From Escherichia coli (GTDB lineage Bacteria; Pseudomonadota; Gammaproteobacteria; Enterobacterales; Enterobacteriaceae): a DNA stretch of 64,000 bases. How positions within the stretch are numbered: position 1 is the first letter of the stretch; every line of letters starts with the position of its first letter. A program made the position numbers and the translations under genes. Location of the stretch: assembly GCF_030384885.1 (NCBI RefSeq), contig NZ_CP128613.1; one strand, written 5' to 3'. The notes below the pieces were generated by a model that had not been told where the DNA came from, did no database searches, and saw nothing but the letters and a program-made list of their open reading frames with translations. Below, piece after piece: positions 26,162 to 54,874 of this stretch.

Positions 26162-26806
26162 ATGAAGCTGTACAGTTTTTTTAATAGTTCAGCATCGTAC
26201 CGGGTACGCATTGCGCTGGCGCTGAAAGGCATTAATTACCAGACCGAAGGGGTGAATATCCGTATTGGTCAGCAAAATGAACTGGCCTATCGGCGGATGA
26301 ATCCTGTCGGGCTGGTGCCGACGCTGCTGACTGACGAGGGCGAGTCACTCGGTCAGTCGCTGGCGATTATTGACTGGCTGGATCGTCACTACCCGCAAGT
26401 TCCGCTGGTGCCGCAGGAAGAACCGGCCCGCAATAAGGTGCTGGAAATTGTCTATGCCATCGCTTGTGATATTCATCCATTGAATAACCTGCGCGTGCTG
26501 CGCTATCTGACCGAAGAGCTGAACGTCAGTGAAGAAGAGAAAAAACGCTGGTATGCGCACTGGATCCAGCAAGGGTTAAGCGCGGTGGAACAGCTACTGC
26601 GCCAGAGCCAGTCGGGGCAATTTTGTGTGGGTGAGACGCCGACGCTGGCAGACTGCTGCCTTGTTCCGCAGTGGGCGAACGCGCTACGTATGAACTGCGA
26701 TCTGAGTGGATATCCGCGCTGCAAAGCGGTGTACGACGCCTGCACACAACTGCCAGCGTTCATTGCCGCAGCGCCAGAAAATCAACAAGATAAAATTTCA
26801 GCCTGA
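26162..26806 (+). CDS. mhbI: Maleylpyruvate isomerase (GST zeta-class)
   Basis: 214-aa GST-like protein. Confidence 0.75.
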   Translation: MKLYSFFNSSASYRVRIALALKGINYQTEGVNIRIGQQNELAYRRMNPVGLVPTLLTDEGESLGQSLAIIDWLDRHYPQVPLVPQEEPARNKVLEIVYAIACDIHPLNNLRVLRYLTEELNVSEEEKKRWYAHWIQQGLSAVEQLLRQSQSGQFCVGETPTLADCCLVPQWANALRMNCDLSGYPRCKAVYDACTQLPAFIAAAPENQQDKISA

Positions 26807-26820
26807 CCAGGAGAACCATA

Positions 26821-28014
26821 ATGACTAAAGTGACACGCGCAGTAATTGTGGGAGGCGGGATCGGCGGTGCGGCAACTGCGCTGTCACTGGCCCGCCAGGG
26901 GATCAAAGTGGTGCTGCTGGAAAAGGCGCATGAGATCGGTGAGATCGGCGCAGGTATCCAGTTGGGGCCAAATGCGTTTTCGGCGTTGGATAGTCTTGGT
27001 GTTGGCGAAATCGCCCGCCAACGTGCGGTATTCACCGATCACATCACCATGATGGACGCGGTGAACGCCGAAGAAGTGGTGCGTATTGAAACCGGGCAGG
27101 CCTTTCGTGACCATTTCGGCGGCCCTTACGCGGTGATCCACCGCGTTGATATTCATGCCTCGGTGTGGGAAGCGGTACTGACGCATCCGAACGTGGAGTA
27201 TCACACCTCTACGAATGTCGTGGATATTCGTGAGACGGAAGACGATGTCACCGTTTTCGACGATCGAGGTAATAGCTGGAGCGGCGATATTTTGATTGGA
27301 TGTGATGGCGTGAAGTCAGTGGTGCGCCAGAGCTTATTAGGCGATGCGCCGCGCGTCACCGGTCATGTGGTCTACCGTGCGGTTATCGATTGTGCGGATA
27401 TGCCGGAAGATTTACGTATTAATGCGCCGGTATTGTGGGCGGGGCCGCACTGTCACCTGGTGCATTATCCTTTGCGCGGCGGCAAGCAGTATAACCTGGT
27501 GGTGACATTCCACAGCCGCCACCAGGAAGAGTGGGGCGTGAAGGATGGCAGTAAAGAGGAAGTGCTTTCCTATTTTGAAGGCATTCACCCGCGTCCTCGC
27601 CAGATGCTGGATAAACCGACGTCATGGCGACGCTGGTCAACGGCCGATCGTGAACCGGTAGGGAAATGGGGGACTAACCGCATTACGCTGGTGGGCGATG
27701 CGGCCCATCCGGTGGCGCAGTATATGGCACAAGGTGCCTGTATGGCGCTGGAAGATGCAGTAACGCTGGGTAAGGCGCTGGCGCAGTGTGAGGGTGATGC
27801 GGCGCAAGCTTTTGCGCTGTATGAGTCGGTACGTATTCCGCGTACCGCGCGCATCGTCTGGTCGACCCGTGAAATGGGGCGGGTTTATCACGCCGCAGGG
27901 GTAGAACGTCAGGTACGTAACCTGCTGTGGAAAGGGAAATCGCAGGCAGAGTTTTATCGCGGCATGGAGTGGCTGTACGGCTGGAAAGAAGATAACTGTC
28001 TGCAACCACGCTGA
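26821..28014 (+). CDS. mhbM: FAD-dependent aromatic monooxygenase, 3-hydroxybenzoate 6-hydroxylase / salicylate hydroxylase family
   Basis: N-terminal VIVGGGIGGAATALSL dinucleotide fold, DG and GD FAD motifs. Confidence 0.75.
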   Translation: MTKVTRAVIVGGGIGGAATALSLARQGIKVVLLEKAHEIGEIGAGIQLGPNAFSALDSLGVGEIARQRAVFTDHITMMDAVNAEEVVRIETGQAFRDHFGGPYAVIHRVDIHASVWEAVLTHPNVEYHTSTNVVDIRETEDDVTVFDDRGNSWSGDILIGCDGVKSVVRQSLLGDAPRVTGHVVYRAVIDCADMPEDLRINAPVLWAGPHCHLVHYPLRGGKQYNLVVTFHSRHQEEWGVKDGSKEEVLSYFEGIHPRPRQMLDKPTSWRRWSTADREPVGKWGTNRITLVGDAAHPVAQYMAQGACMALEDAVTLGKALAQCEGDAAQAFALYESVRIPRTARIVWSTREMGRVYHAAGVERQVRNLLWKGKSQAEFYRGMEWLYGWKEDNCLQPR

Positions 28015-29124: not shown

Positions 29125-29506
29125 TAGTGGAATCGCAGCTTACCAGAGACAATGAGTCGTTTATTCAGCTTCATCATCTTGTTGCGCTCCTTTCATGAGC
29201 TAAGCCATATATTGCCACTGGCGCAAGGCGCGCAGGGGAAGGACAATCGCCTCCTCCCCCTGCAAGCCCGGGCTCTGGCGAACAAAATCGCCGTTGCGCG
29301 GTACCTTCAGCTTATCCCCTTCGTCTACCGTGTCGTGCGCGAGTTAACGTATATGGACGCTCCCTCAGCCCACATTCATGTGGGCTGTCCCGGCCTTCGG
29401 GGAACGCTTCAGCGATTTTGACGCCACCAACACCGGAGCTGTTTGCAAATCAAGTACACAAAATATCGAGTTCCTGACCTGACAACTTATATGCCATATC
29501 TGATTT

Positions 29507-29590
29507 TTAAAATATCATCTTAAATACGCCAGTCACCACCAGTAGTCCAATCAGGAAAATAATCAATACAGCCCAGAGTATAATTTTCAT
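29507..29590 (-). CDS. yohP: Small membrane protein YohP (27 aa)
   Basis: Minus-strand ORF MKIILWAVLIIFLIGLLVVTGVFKMIF with AAGGA Shine-Dalgarno; below the ORF-track length cut-off. Confidence 0.8.
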   Translation of the reverse strand: MKIILWAVLIIFLIGLLVVTGVFKMIF

Positions 29591-29813
29591 TGGCGTTCCT
29601 TTATTTGTGAGTGTCGAATAAGTATAGGAAAAAACGAAGCCCTTTGCCGTTACTCATAAGTGATTAAGATAAATCGGAGAATATCATTCACTTACTGTAT
29701 ATTTTTCTGAATATGTCGTTTTATTGCCACTGATGTATTGCCACGCGAAACTAAAAAATATATTGAATCACACGGTAATCTCCGCGCACCTTTTCTTACC
29801 TGACTATTCCTCC

Positions 29814-31250
29814 ATGAATCGTGATTCCTTTTACCCAGCCATCGCCTGTTTTCCTCTGTTACTGATGCTGGCCGGGTGTGCGCCTATGCATGAAACCCGC
29901 CAGGCGTTAAGCCAGCAAACACCCGCTGCGCAAGTTGACACCGCATTACCTACGGCGCTGAAAAATGGTTGGCCAGACAGCCAATGGTGGCTGGAGTATC
30001 ACGATAATCAACTCACTTCATTAATTAACTATGCACTGCAGAACGCACCGGATATGCAGGTGGCTGAACAGCGCATTCAGCTGGCTGAAGCCCAGGCGAA
30101 GGCAGTTGCCACTCAGGATGGCCCTCAGATCGATTTTTCTGCGGATATGGAGCGGCAAAAAATGTCGGCAGAAGGGCTAATGGGGCCGTTTGCTCTGAAC
30201 GATCCTGCCGCAGGTACGACCGGTCCGTGGTACACCAATGGTACTTTTGGCTTAACGGCGGGCTGGCATCTTGATATTTGGGGAAAGAATCGGGCGGAGG
30301 TTACTGCTCGCCTCGGTACGGTTAAAGCACGGGCGGCGGAACGCGAGCAAACCCGCCAATTGCTGGCTGGCAGCGTTGCCCGCCTTTACTGGGAGTGGCA
30401 AACCCAGGCAGCGTTAAACACTGTTTTGCAGCAAATCGAAAAAGAGCAGAACACCATTATCGCGACCGATCGCCAGCTATACCAGAACGGGATTACTTCT
30501 TCAGTTGAAGGTGTGGAAACCGATATTAATGCCAGCAAGACCCGGCAGCAGCTCAACGATGTCGTGGGAAAAATGAAAATTATTGAGGCACGGTTAAGCG
30601 CACTTACAAATCACCAGATAAAGTCATTGAAGCTTAAACCGGTTGAGTTGCCGAAAGTGGCAAGTCAGCTTCCTGATGAACTGGGGTATTCATTGCTGGC
30701 ACGGCGGGCAGATTTGCAGGCAGCGCATTGGTACGTTGAGTCATCGTTAAGCACCATTGATGCGGCAAAAGCGGCATTTTACCCTGACATCAACCTGATG
30801 GCCTTCCTGCAACAGGATGCGTTGCACTTAAGCGATTTGTTCCGTCATTCCGCGCAGCAAATGGGCGTTACGGCAGGCCTGACGCTACCCATTTTCGATA
30901 GTGGTCGTCTTAACGCCAACCTCGATATTGCAAAAGCCGAAAGCAACTTGTCTATCGCCAGCTACAACAAAGCGGTGGTTGAAGCGGTGAATGACGTGGC
31001 GCGGGCAGCCAGTCAGGTTCAGACGCTGGCGGAGAAAAACCAGCATCAGGCGCAAATTGAGCGCGATGCCTTGCGTGTGGTAGGTCTTGCGCAGGCCCGC
31101 TTTAACGCGGGTATCATTGCTGGTTCCCGCGTCAGCGAAGCCAGGATCCCGGCGCTGCGTGAGCGGGCCAATGGCCTGTTATTGCAAGGGCAGTGGCTGG
31201 ATGCCTCCATTCAACTCACTGGTGCGTTGGGCGGGGGTTACAAACGCTGA
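29814..31250 (+). CDS. mdtQ: Outer membrane efflux lipoprotein (OMF/NodT family), apparently intact
   Basis: Lipoprotein signal ...LLMLAGC; TolC-like repeats; uninterrupted 478 codons from MNRDSF. Confidence 0.8.
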   Translation: MNRDSFYPAIACFPLLLMLAGCAPMHETRQALSQQTPAAQVDTALPTALKNGWPDSQWWLEYHDNQLTSLINYALQNAPDMQVAEQRIQLAEAQAKAVATQDGPQIDFSADMERQKMSAEGLMGPFALNDPAAGTTGPWYTNGTFGLTAGWHLDIWGKNRAEVTARLGTVKARAAEREQTRQLLAGSVARLYWEWQTQAALNTVLQQIEKEQNTIIATDRQLYQNGITSSVEGVETDINASKTRQQLNDVVGKMKIIEARLSALTNHQIKSLKLKPVELPKVASQLPDELGYSLLARRADLQAAHWYVESSLSTIDAAKAAFYPDINLMAFLQQDALHLSDLFRHSAQQMGVTAGLTLPIFDSGRLNANLDIAKAESNLSIASYNKAVVEAVNDVARAASQVQTLAEKNQHQAQIERDALRVVGLAQARFNAGIIAGSRVSEARIPALRERANGLLLQGQWLDASIQLTGALGGGYKR

Positions 31251-32064: not shown

Positions 32065-32193
32065 CACAGTGAGGTGCGTGGTTATTTCAATGGGTAATAT
32101 TTGGTAGGCATGGTAAGACGTGCAAGCGTCGCATCAGGCATGGTGCGACGGATGTCGGATGCGGCGCAAACCACCTTATCCGAGGCAATGGTT

Positions 32194-32772
32194 TTACGCC
32201 TGATCATCCGGCTTTTTCTTCCCGCGCCGTTTCAGCCACCAGCGCACGCCAACCACCAGAACCACGACCAGGATCAACCAGACCCAGTGCTTCAAATGCT
32301 GGTCGAGATTGTGCAACCACGGCGCAATCACCTGACCACCAGCATAACCGATAGTGGTAAAAATCAACGCCCAGGCAAATGCGCCGAGAATATTCAGCGG
32401 CAGAAAGATTTTCGGCGGCAGCTGGCTGGCACCAATCAGCGTCGGGCCAATGACCCGAAAGCCATACATAAAACGCGTACCAATGACAAACAGATACGGA
32501 TGGCGCTGGATAAGTTTCTGCGCCCGCTCAATTTTATCCTGATGCTTAGAGAAGCGGCGTAACAGCTTGCCACCAAACCGCCGCCCGCACAGATAAAGCA
32601 CCTGGTCGCCAATCATGCCGCCAAGCGCTACAGAAAGTACCACCAGCGGGAACTTTAATAACCCCTGATGTGCCGCAACGCCTCCCAGCAACGTCACGGT
32701 TTCACCTTCCGCCAGACTTCCGAGCACCAGCGCAGCATAACCATATTGTGAGATGAGTGTATTGAGATCCAT
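32194..32772 (-). CDS. yohD: DedA-family inner membrane protein
   Basis: Start taken at MDLNTLISQYGY. Confidence 0.8.
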   Translation of the reverse strand: MDLNTLISQYGYAALVLGSLAEGETVTLLGGVAAHQGLLKFPLVVLSVALGGMIGDQVLYLCGRRFGGKLLRRFSKHQDKIERAQKLIQRHPYLFVIGTRFMYGFRVIGPTLIGASQLPPKIFLPLNILGAFAWALIFTTIGYAGGQVIAPWLHNLDQHLKHWVWLILVVVLVVGVRWWLKRRGKKKPDDQA

Positions 32773-33529: not shown

Positions 33530-33702
33530 CAAGTTCTTTTGCGTTGCATTGCTGGCGTAAATGTCAGCAATGCAGCATTTCCTCACGATTCTTCTTTGAC
33601 GATCGCACTTTTTGCTCGTTATGATGGCGTCGCTAGCCTCAGTAAATCCTTACTCCGGCGGTGCGCAACCTGTGCGCGTGAACCACTATCTGAATGCTCA
33701 TC

Positions 33703-34635: not shown

Positions 34636-34815
34636 GGGTAGGCAGGATAAGGCGTTTACGCCGCATCAGGCATTCGGAGCACGATGCCTGATGCGATGCT
34701 TGCGCATCTTATCAGGCCTACAAACGTGACGCGTCCGTAGGCAGGATAAGGCGTTCACGCCGCATCCGGCATTCGGTGCACGATGCCTGATGCGATGCTT
34801 CTATTTGCATCAGGC
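34636..34815. repeat. BIME: two tandem ~60-bp units each containing REP palindromes
   Basis: aggcaggataaggcgtt(t/c)acgccgcatc(a/c)ggcattcgg(a/t)gcacgatgcctgatgcgatgctt occurs twice. Confidence 0.8.
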
Positions 34816-42189: not shown

Positions 42190-42921
42190 ATGAAGATGTT
42201 GCGCGATCCGCTGTTCTGGCTCATTGCTCTGTTTGTGGCACTGATTTTCTGGCTGCCTTACAGCCAGCCGCTGTTTTCTGCCTTGTTCCCACAACTGCCA
42301 CGCCCCGTTTATCAGCAAGAAAGTTTTGCTGCTCTGGCACTGGCTCATTTCTGGCTGGTGGGAATTTCGAGTTTGTTTGCGGTGATCATTGGCACAGGTG
42401 CCGGAATTATTGTTACTCGCCCGTGGGGTGCGGAATTTCGCCCACTGGTGGAAACTATTGCCGCCGTTGGGCAGACTTTTCCGCCCGTTGCGGTGCTGGC
42501 GATTGCCGTTCCGGTGATTGGGTTTGGTCTGCAACCGGCGATTATCGCCTTGATCCTGTACGGTGTGCTGCCCGTCCTGCAGGCGACACTTGCCGGGCTG
42601 GGAGCGATTGATGTCAGCGTGACAGAAGTTGCGAAAGGTATGGGAATGAGCCGTGGTCAGCAACTGCGTAAGGTCGAGCTACCGCTGGCGGCTCCGGTGA
42701 TTCTGGCGGGCGTGCGAACTTCGGTGATTATCAACATTGGTACGGCGACGATCGCCTCAACGGTAGGGGCCAGCACGCTGGGTACGCCCATCATCATCGG
42801 GCTTAGCGGATTTAATACCGCGTATGTGATCCAGGGGGCGTTACTGGTGGCACTGGCGGCGATCATCGCAGACCGCCTGTTTGAAAGGCTGGTGCAGGCG
42901 CTTAGCCAGCACGCAAAATAA
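42190..42921 (+). CDS. yehW: ABC transporter permease
   Basis: 243 aa permease. Confidence 0.85.
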
Positions 42922-43009
42922 AGGTATAACCTGCGAGCATGACGCCACCAATTCCGCCTAACGCCATAAAAAGGAACAGGGCGATGACCCCAATTTTAGC
43001 TATGCGCAT
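42902..43009 (-). CDS. yohO: Small membrane protein YohO (35 aa)
   Basis: Minus-strand [38 protein letters not shown] preceded by AAGGAG; 3' end overlaps yehW 3' end by 20 nt; absent from ORF track. Confidence 0.8.
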
Positions 43010-43068
43010 AATGCACTCCTTATGTTAACGAAAGGATTGTACAGTAAAGCGCATTTGTTAACGAATCA

Positions 43069-43800
43069 TTAAATGCCGAGTGGGAAAATATCATGGCCTT
43101 GTTCCTGCCAACTGGTAAGTTGCTGCTGTTGGGCAGAGGTTCGATTTTCACCGCACCACACCAGCAATGTACGGCCTTCGAACAGTTCTGGGCGTAGTTG
43201 ATTGAGCGAGTGGGCGAGGACATCAATGCGCCATCCTTGTTGACTGGCAATCCAGCCCTCTAGCCACAGACGGGTGGTATCCTGAATATTCCAGCCAACC
43301 ACCAGCGCATCTTTACCCTGTTTTTTACGTGCCGAAGCCAGACAAATGGCGATGTAGTTGATCAGTACGCCGTCGAGGATCGCCAGCAGCGCCTGGAGAG
43401 TCGGTTGTTGGCACTGAAGCCGTCGGCGCAGAGGAATAAACAGGTGCGTGGTGAGTGTCTGGGCGGGGTAATCCTGACCGCGCTCTTTGATCCACGTTCG
43501 CAGGCTATGCAGATTGCCGCTTTGCAGGTAAGTCAGTAATGTTTCTTGCTGATCGCGCCAGCCGTTCTGCACATCAACATTTTCATTACTGAGCAGCATT
43601 TTAACTTTGCTGACCTGCACGCCGTTGTCGATCCAGCGTTTGATCTCGCGGATCCGGTCAATATCGGCATCATTGAACAGCCGATGACCGCCGTCTGTCC
43701 GTTGCGGTTTCAGCAATCCGTAACGCCTCTGCCACGCGCGTAACGTGACAGGGTTAATATCACAAAGCAACGCCACTTCACCAATTGTGTAAAGCGCCAT
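43069..43800 (-). CDS. mlrA: MerR-family regulator (curli/csgD activator)
   Basis: 243 aa; N-terminal MerR HTH MALYTIGEVALLCDINPVTLRAWQRRYGLL. Confidence 0.9.
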   Translation of the reverse strand: MALYTIGEVALLCDINPVTLRAWQRRYGLLKPQRTDGGHRLFNDADIDRIREIKRWIDNGVQVSKVKMLLSNENVDVQNGWRDQQETLLTYLQSGNLHSLRTWIKERGQDYPAQTLTTHLFIPLRRRLQCQQPTLQALLAILDGVLINYIAICLASARKKQGKDALVVGWNIQDTTRLWLEGWIASQQGWRIDVLAHSLNQLRPELFEGRTLLVWCGENRTSAQQQQLTSWQEQGHDIFPLGI

Positions 43801-54181: not shown

Positions 54182-54265
54182 TAAAAAAACCTGCTGGTGA
54201 GGCAGGTTCTTTTATTTACTACTTTCAGGCCTAACACCACGGCCTGTGCAACATCGTGTTCCAAC
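54182..54265 (-). ncRNA. orzO: Antisense antitoxin sRNA (OrzO-like) of type I TA locus
   Basis: Minus-strand promoter TTGCAA-17 nt-TATAAT (-10 at 54272-54277), 5' region complementary to toxin leader (54246-54265 vs 54412-54431, 19/20), hairpin acctgc..gcaggt + U7 terminator at 54182-54207. Confidence 0.7.
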
Positions 54266-54294
54266 GAACGAATTATAACCATCGGTGGACCCCG

Positions 54295-54322
54295 TTGCAA
54301 TTAAGATAATGAGATTTATAAT
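54295..54322 (+). promoter_or_regulatory. Promoter of toxin mRNA (TTGCAA-16 nt-TATAAT), giving ~175-nt 5' leader
   Basis: -35 ttgcaa 54295-54300 (palindromic, shared with divergent sRNA promoter), -10 tataat 54317-54322. Confidence 0.65.
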
Positions 54323-54502
54323 CCTGACTGTTGGGACGTTGCGCCGGATCGAACCCATTTCAAGTCCTGGCTACCGGACGGGTGGTGCCGCAGGTAGTGC
54401 CCTGATCCGGAGTGCAACATCGTGGTCCAACATACGTAAACCAGTATCGACAGGCAGTGTAAGGGTAAGATGCTGGTGTTGCGCTCCTTAATAAGGAGAG
54501 CG

Positions 54503-54592
54503 GATGGACACGCTGACACAAAAGTTAACCGTGCTCATTGCCGTACTGGAGTTATTAGTGGCTCTGTTACGGCTGATTGATTTGTTGAAGTA
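54503..54592 (+). CDS. zorO: Type I toxin, 29-aa hydrophobic peptide (ZorO-like)
   Basis: ORF MDTLTQKLTVLIAVLELLVALLRLIDLLK preceded by strong SD taaggagag; matches my recollection of ZorO from E. coli O157:H7; not in ORF track (too short). Confidence 0.7.
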
Positions 54593-54615
54593 ACGGGCAA
54601 ATTGAAACGCATCTA

Positions 54616-54645
54616 AGGGGGAAAATACCGCTTCCCCCTTTAATA
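54616..54645 (+). terminator. Rho-independent terminator of toxin mRNA
   Basis: agggggaa-aataccgc-ttccccct followed by ttaataaaat. Confidence 0.6.
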
Positions 54646-54792
54646 AAATGATTATTGCTTCCATTAATTCACCCGATAACTTTTTTCTTATTTATTAATT
54701 CATCGATTTTATAATTAACGTACATTTGACCGGGATGTGAGTATTTATGGTGGCTATTGGCGAAAAATATCTGGAAACCAGATCGCGGAAAA

Positions 54793-54874
54793 TAAAAAAA
54801 CCTGCTGGTGAGGCAGGTTCTTTTATTTACTACTTTGACGATAACTTGCTGATTGTGCAACATTTCGTACCAAC
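54793..54874 (-). ncRNA. Second Orz-like sRNA (orphan: no cognate toxin ORF downstream)
   Basis: Intact minus-strand promoter TTGCAA(54904-54909)-17-TATAAT(54881-54886), terminator hairpin 54800-54818 + U-run; seed gtgcaacatttcgtaccaac differs from unit 1. Confidence 0.6.

Follow-up and report, generated by a model that had tools for sequence, protein, structure and literature searches.

The two short open reading frames (ORFs) that a first-pass annotation of this DNA had named yohO and yohP are indeed those known genes, the orthologues of b4542 and b4679 of Escherichia coli K-12 MG1655, and both are translated. We consider it about 90% probable that the full picture consists of known genes in which yohO forms an autonomous unit of promoter, Shine-Dalgarno (SD) sequence and ORF, with its 3' end lying antisense to the 3' end of yehW. 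In the window, by which we mean the whole stretch of 64,000 nucleotides (nt) that was analysed, yohO occupies 42902-43009 (-) and encodes 35 aa plus stop, while yohP occupies 29507-29590 (-) and encodes 27 aa plus stop (MKIILWAVLIIFLIGLLVVTGVFKMIF); ORF calls and RefSeq agree on the coordinates, and RefSeq and profile HMMs on the names. Annotation was taken from the RefSeq record of E. coli 2013C-4282 (NZ_CP027579.1), which is 100% identical to the window and in which PGAP assigns these very positions to "protein YohO" (WP_001216963.1) and "small membrane protein YohP" (WP_000691708.1). The two genes and the overlap of the yohO and yehW transcripts were thus already known, with both genes annotated and both products detected, and what is added here is a comparative picture comprising a family-wide, frame-locked overlap, a predicted promoter block specific to yohO and the linkage of yohO to yehW.

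The first-pass annotation had also described both genes as missing. This was correct for the ORF track from which they were absent but not for the annotation, since both are annotated in RefSeq/PGAP and in K-12, and their missing status is an artefact of the length cut-off of the track rather than a matter of annotation or biology. Both are absent because they are shorter than that cut-off; yohO is listed at a 20-aa ORF threshold and dropped at the default threshold of 60 aa. ORF tracks with a length cut-off will systematically hide such genes. As a control for chance occurrence we took all ATG-initiated ORFs of 20-50 aa in the window (n=493) and looked for those with an SD at the right distance together with a stretch of transmembrane (TM)-grade hydropathy. 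Only three of the 493 passed, namely yohP, yohO and a ZorO-like toxin ORF, compared with a mean of 0.03 ORFs in shuffled sequence (30 shuffles). A simple filter of start codon, SD and hydropathy therefore picked exactly three genuine candidates.

YohO, a member of the UPF0387/YohO family, is a small protein that spans the membrane once. Its gene is preceded by an SD, AAGGAG, at 43016-43021 (-), read directly from the sequence and separated from the ATG by a 6-nt spacer, which bears out the description of its ribosome binding site as a good one. The predicted product is hydrophobic and single-TM as had been proposed, with a best 19-aa Kyte-Doolittle window of 2.41 and charges at the ends only, and its AF2 model (built from a 25-sequence alignment) is one continuous helix covering residues 3-34 with a mean pLDDT of 89.7. 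Ten residues are invariant (M15 A16 G19 I20 G22 V23 M24 L25 G27 Y28). Hydropathy, structure model and invariant residues together place the protein among the 35-37 aa single TM helices with a conserved GGxGG-containing core, and the NCBIfam equivalog model for YohO, NF010225, matches residues 1-35 of 35 with 80.1 bits (E 8.8e-23), above its cut-off of 57. Searches of PDB sequences with the YohO and YohP peptides returned no match. The K-12 MG1655 protein is 100% identical and its gene differs by one synonymous base, with 70 nt upstream identical and the same 20-nt overlap with yehW (b2128). yohO is single-copy and vertically conserved, and 5423 of the 5426 complete genomes of E. coli carry the region.

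The YohO protein has been detected by top-down mass spectrometry (MS; PMC12529367) and its translation by Ribo-seq (bioRxiv 10.1101/2020.05.05.079178). YohO is absent from a 2025 review of small membrane proteins (PMC12648545). For YohP, detection has come from epitope tagging (PMC12719787; PMC5437024). The outcome that the first-pass annotation had named as counting against these ORFs, an absence of translation signal, had therefore already been answered by published work. These experiments were performed in K-12, and for YohP also in Salmonella, rather than in the strain from which the window derives.

In order to look at yohO across the enterobacteria we performed a scan anchored on MlrA using one genome per species, which yielded 80 loci from genera including Escherichia, Citrobacter, Salmonella, Enterobacter, Leclercia, Lelliottia, Kosakonia, Phytobacter, Buttiauxella, Atlantibacter, Franconibacter and Cedecea. 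A yohO-like sequence was present between mlrA and the convergent yehW in 80/80 loci and an intact ATG-initiated ORF of 35-37 codons in 79/80. The sole disrupted copy, in Citrobacter amalonaticus AUH_CA_2023_1 (L010:3293-3400), carries an extra T in a T-run that results in a frameshift; it sits on a 4.9 Mb contig and could be a homopolymer sequencing or assembly error or a genuine pseudogene.

Short ORFs are abundant, as the total of 493 given above illustrates, and an ORF such as yohO might be a by-product of conserved non-coding sequence, for instance a terminator, the 3' end of yehW or the 3' UTR of mlrA. The pattern of substitution argues against this. Among 79 distinct coding sequences (CDSs) the variable sites at codon positions one, two and three number 19/12/29, a 3-nt periodicity, and pooled Nei-Gojobori pN/pS is 0.29 overall, 0.31 outside the overlap with yehW and 0.21 in the overlap codons. 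The SD is likewise conserved at a fixed spacing, with the core GGAG in 77/79 loci and the 6-nt spacer in 70. A structured-RNA signal is absent, no Rfam family matching the yohO region at either gathering or permissive thresholds. Together with the equivalog HMM match and the detection of the product, these results leave the non-coding reading with almost no probability, and the MS and Ribo-seq data effectively refute it. yohO is coding and under purifying selection.

Directly upstream of yohO on the same strand lies mlrA (43069-43800, - strand, RefSeq), separated by a 59-nt spacer. A predicted -10 hexamer, TACAAT, is located at 43036-43041 (-), 26 nt 5' of the ATG, and belongs to a block that is conserved in a 72-sequence alignment of this spacer. 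In the 79 loci the hexamer is TATAAT in 56, comprising most other genera, TACAAT in 16 and TATACT in 6, and its end falls 25-27 nt from the ATG in 74/79. This conserved -10 leads us to infer a separate promoter for yohO. Between it and the SD, the alignment consensus also shows a GTTAACA motif (43023-43029, -), and a second TTAACA copy lies at 43056-43061 (-), so that two copies flank the predicted -10, both conserved across genera. These could be a site for a regulator. A role for TTAACA as the -35 element of yohO was considered and rejected, as most genera have it 14 nt from the -10 and several Citrobacter only 6 nt, and it thus does not behave as a fixed-spacing -35. The sequence TGTACAAT at the -10, which resembles an MlrA-box half-site, was similarly set aside because it is not conserved and reads CGTATAAT elsewhere.

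At its other end yohO converges on yehW (42190-42921, +; ORF and RefSeq), with which the osmF-yehYXW operon for a glycine betaine ABC transporter ends. The two CDSs share 20 nt at 42902-42921, exactly as the first-pass annotation had stated, with the last 6 codons and stop of yohO lying opposite the last 5 codons and stop of yehW. The overlap is a feature of all 79 intact loci, being 20 nt in 33, 23 nt in 4 and 26 nt in 42, and these lengths track YohO lengths of 35, 36 and 37 aa respectively, so that the relative frame of the two genes never changes. The last ~10 residues of YehW are the most variable stretch of its C-terminal 40. Given this variable tail and the pN/pS of 0.21 for yohO in the overlap codons, YohO looks like the more constrained of the two partners.

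No canonical intrinsic terminator was found past the overlap on either strand by a terminator scan or by folding against shuffled sequence (z about -1). One terminator-like match inside yohO, at 42977-42992 (-), was discarded; its stem is weak (3 GC and 3 GU pairs) and such matches occur at chance level, with 4 found against 2.2 expected. As the CDSs overlap, both mRNAs must reach their stop codons and no recognisable terminator lies nearby, at least 20 nt of the yohO and yehW mRNAs are bound to be complementary, and the complementary stretch is probably considerably longer. The antisense relationship of the 3' transcript ends that had been proposed is real and has already been catalogued: in the ExcludonFinder study of 2025 the pair is among 165 convergent excludons, found in at least half of 58 RNA-seq samples of MG1655 (PMC12288877). 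The window agrees with that listing (PMC12288877, Table 1), since the CDS overlap by itself makes the transcripts of these convergent neighbours overlap. Like the other convergent excludons the two genes are a neighbouring pair with complementary 3' ends; they differ in that the coding sequences themselves overlap, beyond any UTRs.

Whether the overlap couples the expression of yohO and yehW, as had been suggested, up to the mutual exclusion that defines an excludon, is a matter of speculation. One possibility is a functional excludon, in which transcriptional interference or cleavage of the duplex by RNase III would give reciprocal expression of YohO and the betaine transporter. Overlapping CDSs with no nearby terminator on either strand and the inclusion of the pair among the MG1655 convergent excludons (PMC12288877) would both be expected of such a device, as would an overlap that was never lost in 79/79 loci, or in 6 further loci described below, and whose frame is fixed. 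Constraint on the tails of the two proteins, or the inseparability of overlapping genes by rearrangement, would however account for that conservation equally well. Moreover, in a study that captured double-stranded RNA (dsRNA) with p19, the read density of captured dsRNA in 5' (divergent) operon overlaps exceeded that in 3' (convergent) ones 37.9-fold on average; neither yohO nor yehW is named in the main text of that study. A functional excludon is on balance unlikely.

Our best estimate is instead that the overlap is in the main an old arrangement not easily broken, with mutual interference modest at most. The last codons of yohO are written opposite the last codons of yehW, which leaves the two mRNAs with complementary 3' ends, and yohO appears to be an autonomous unit consisting of the -10, the GTTAACA motif, a strong SD and an ORF of 35-37 codons. 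An overlap of this kind would be difficult to undo because no rearrangement could part the two genes without damage to one, and because both stop positions are constrained. That the arrangement has instead been selected, either as a family-wide excludon setting YohO against OsmF-YehYXW or because YohO is a dedicated partner of the transporter, we regard as unlikely.

The family to which YohO belongs is narrow. An exhaustive phmmer search among 1.84 billion cluster representatives gave 17 matches at E<=0.001, most of which are frameshifted variants of one sequence. The divergent homologues carry the Pfam domain PF27791 (UPF0387_membrane), and in the genomes of the two most divergent full-length proteins (P0014 and P0015) yohO does not have mlrA upstream. 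The place of mlrA in the divergent genomes is taken by metG, by an ArsR-type regulator or by a TonB-dependent receptor, and yohO remains convergent with the permease gene that ends an OpuAC-type ABC operon. In these six loci (L084-L089) the overlap is exactly 20 nt, and the loci lacking mlrA keep the block TATAAT - GTTAACA - AAGGAG - ATG, with GTTAACA itself seen in L084 and L087-L089. As the predicted promoter block and the 20-nt overlap both persist without mlrA, yohO is tied to the end of yehW and not to mlrA. In the locus with the TonB-dependent receptor (L084:2890-3000) the spacer starts ...CATTTAATGTTTTATTAAC..., like the mlrA stop-codon region of other genera, which suggests that mlrA was lost or replaced there and the yohO promoter block kept.

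That yohO travels with the end of yehW provides a first testable hypothesis on the function of YohO. In E. coli the small TM proteins AcrZ, MgrB and CydX act as regulators of larger membrane proteins. YohO resembles them in being shorter than 50 aa, with a single TM helix, a strong SD and conservation at the level of the Enterobacteriaceae; unlike them, it has to our knowledge no known partner protein. YohO could accordingly be imagined as a dedicated accessory TM partner or regulator of the OsmF-YehYXW ABC transporter, with the linkage of the genes reflecting a shared function. The linkage to the yehW end outlasts that to mlrA, and the invariant mid-membrane core MAxxGIxGVMLxGY spans several faces of the helix, suggestive of specific helix packing. 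Overlapping genes would nevertheless remain linked on structural grounds alone, and a convergent orientation with a separate promoter is unusual for a subunit. With 17 YohO representatives in 1.84 billion, we would also expect that such transporters work without YohO elsewhere, and no solved structure contains YohO. We therefore consider a dedicated transporter partner improbable and retain the ancient, hard-to-break arrangement as the preferred account of the overlap. The osmF-yehYXW operon is itself reportedly sigma-S-dependent.

The combination of a short, hydrophobic peptide with one TM helix and a transcript antisense to part of its gene is also reminiscent of a type I toxin-antitoxin system, with yohO as the toxin and the yehW 3' end as its antisense RNA, and what appears to be a genuine locus of this type (zor-orz) lies elsewhere in the window. 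The geometry does not fit, as the sole antisense partner, the 3' end of the yehW mRNA, covers the 3' end of yohO and not its translation-initiation region. The locus has no dedicated cis-antisense sRNA and no match in Rfam, yohO is a single-copy and vertically conserved gene, and a growth-based screen at 0.1 mM IPTG yielded a live ASKA overexpression clone of yohO (PMC10299036). A toxin-antitoxin-like pair is consequently very unlikely, and the reading of yohO as an autonomous gene with a 3' end antisense to yehW is the one we keep. The zor-orz-like region was recognised from two matches to the Rfam OrzO-P RNA at 54183-54258 (-) and 54794-54867 (-), with scores of 98.9 and 90.6 bits, which flank a 29-aa hydrophobic ORF (MDTLTQKLTVLIAVLELLVALLRLIDLLK; 54504-54593, +) preceded by an AGGAG SD. 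The region 54183-54867 looks like a zor-orz type I toxin-antitoxin locus. Only one toxin-like ORF was found for the two Orz copies, and an ORF track with a 60-aa threshold would miss it.

The second short gene, yohP, encodes a small membrane protein whose sequence is 100% identical to that of K-12 MG1655, with one synonymous difference in the gene. Its SD, AAGGA(A), lies 5-6 nt before the ATG (AAGGAA at 29596-29601, -) and is identical in K-12, which again agrees with the first-pass description. Upstream of it the sequence CTATACT (29621-29627, -), also identical in K-12, is a candidate sigma-S-type -10 hexamer. As such it would fit the sigma-S-dependent production of YohP in Salmonella (STnc1330/YohP; PMC5437024) and the induction of YohP in stationary phase and minimal medium in E. 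coli (PMC12719787; PMC7549839; PMC12648545). We regard yohP as a sigma-S and stationary-phase induced gene whose product is a single TM helix. The best 19-aa Kyte-Doolittle window of YohP is 2.96, with charges at the ends only. The 27-aa protein has a TM segment flanked by K2 and K24, contains G15 and G21, and matches NCBIfam NF011345 (67.3 bits against 58) and Pfam PF25659 (50.6 bits against 27). SPA/FLAG-tagged YohP expressed from its native promoter has been detected by westerns against the tag and localised to the membrane, into which it is inserted via SRP or mRNA targeting, and the protein has been linked to membrane depolarisation and "metabolic silencing" (PMC12719787; PMC7549839; PMC12648545). 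It dimerises through G15 (PMC7549839).

The position of yohP between dusC and mdtQ is common to the window and K-12, and the same context is described in PMC12719787. In the window mdtQ is intact (29814-31250, +, a 1437-nt CDS), whereas in K-12 MG1655 it is a pseudogene. A further difference from K-12 lies 3' of yohP, where ~270 nt of the dusC-yohP spacer (29164-29430) are in the opposite orientation and only 82% identical, with near-identical flanks. This element is unannotated and without a match in Rfam; a perfect 10-bp hairpin (29366-29387) and an 89-aa ORF (29152-29421, +) lie in it. Of 5426 E. coli genomes, 5177 carry the element, with a median of 2 copies each, but this strain has only one. 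Upstream of dusC, the region 26200-28014 (+) carries maiA and a 3-hydroxybenzoate 6-monooxygenase gene of the gentisate pathway where K-12 has yohJ-yohK, and it represents a strain-specific replacement or island.

Further Rfam matches at gathering level in the window were to the Peptidase-S11 RNA at 33618-33698 (+; 73.1 bits) and to naRNA4/CssrE at 34641-34718 (+; 74.2 bits). PGAP also annotates a 41-aa hypothetical protein (WP_255753470.1) at 32082-32207 (-), which shares a 14-nt same-strand overlap with the start of yohD (32194-32772, -).
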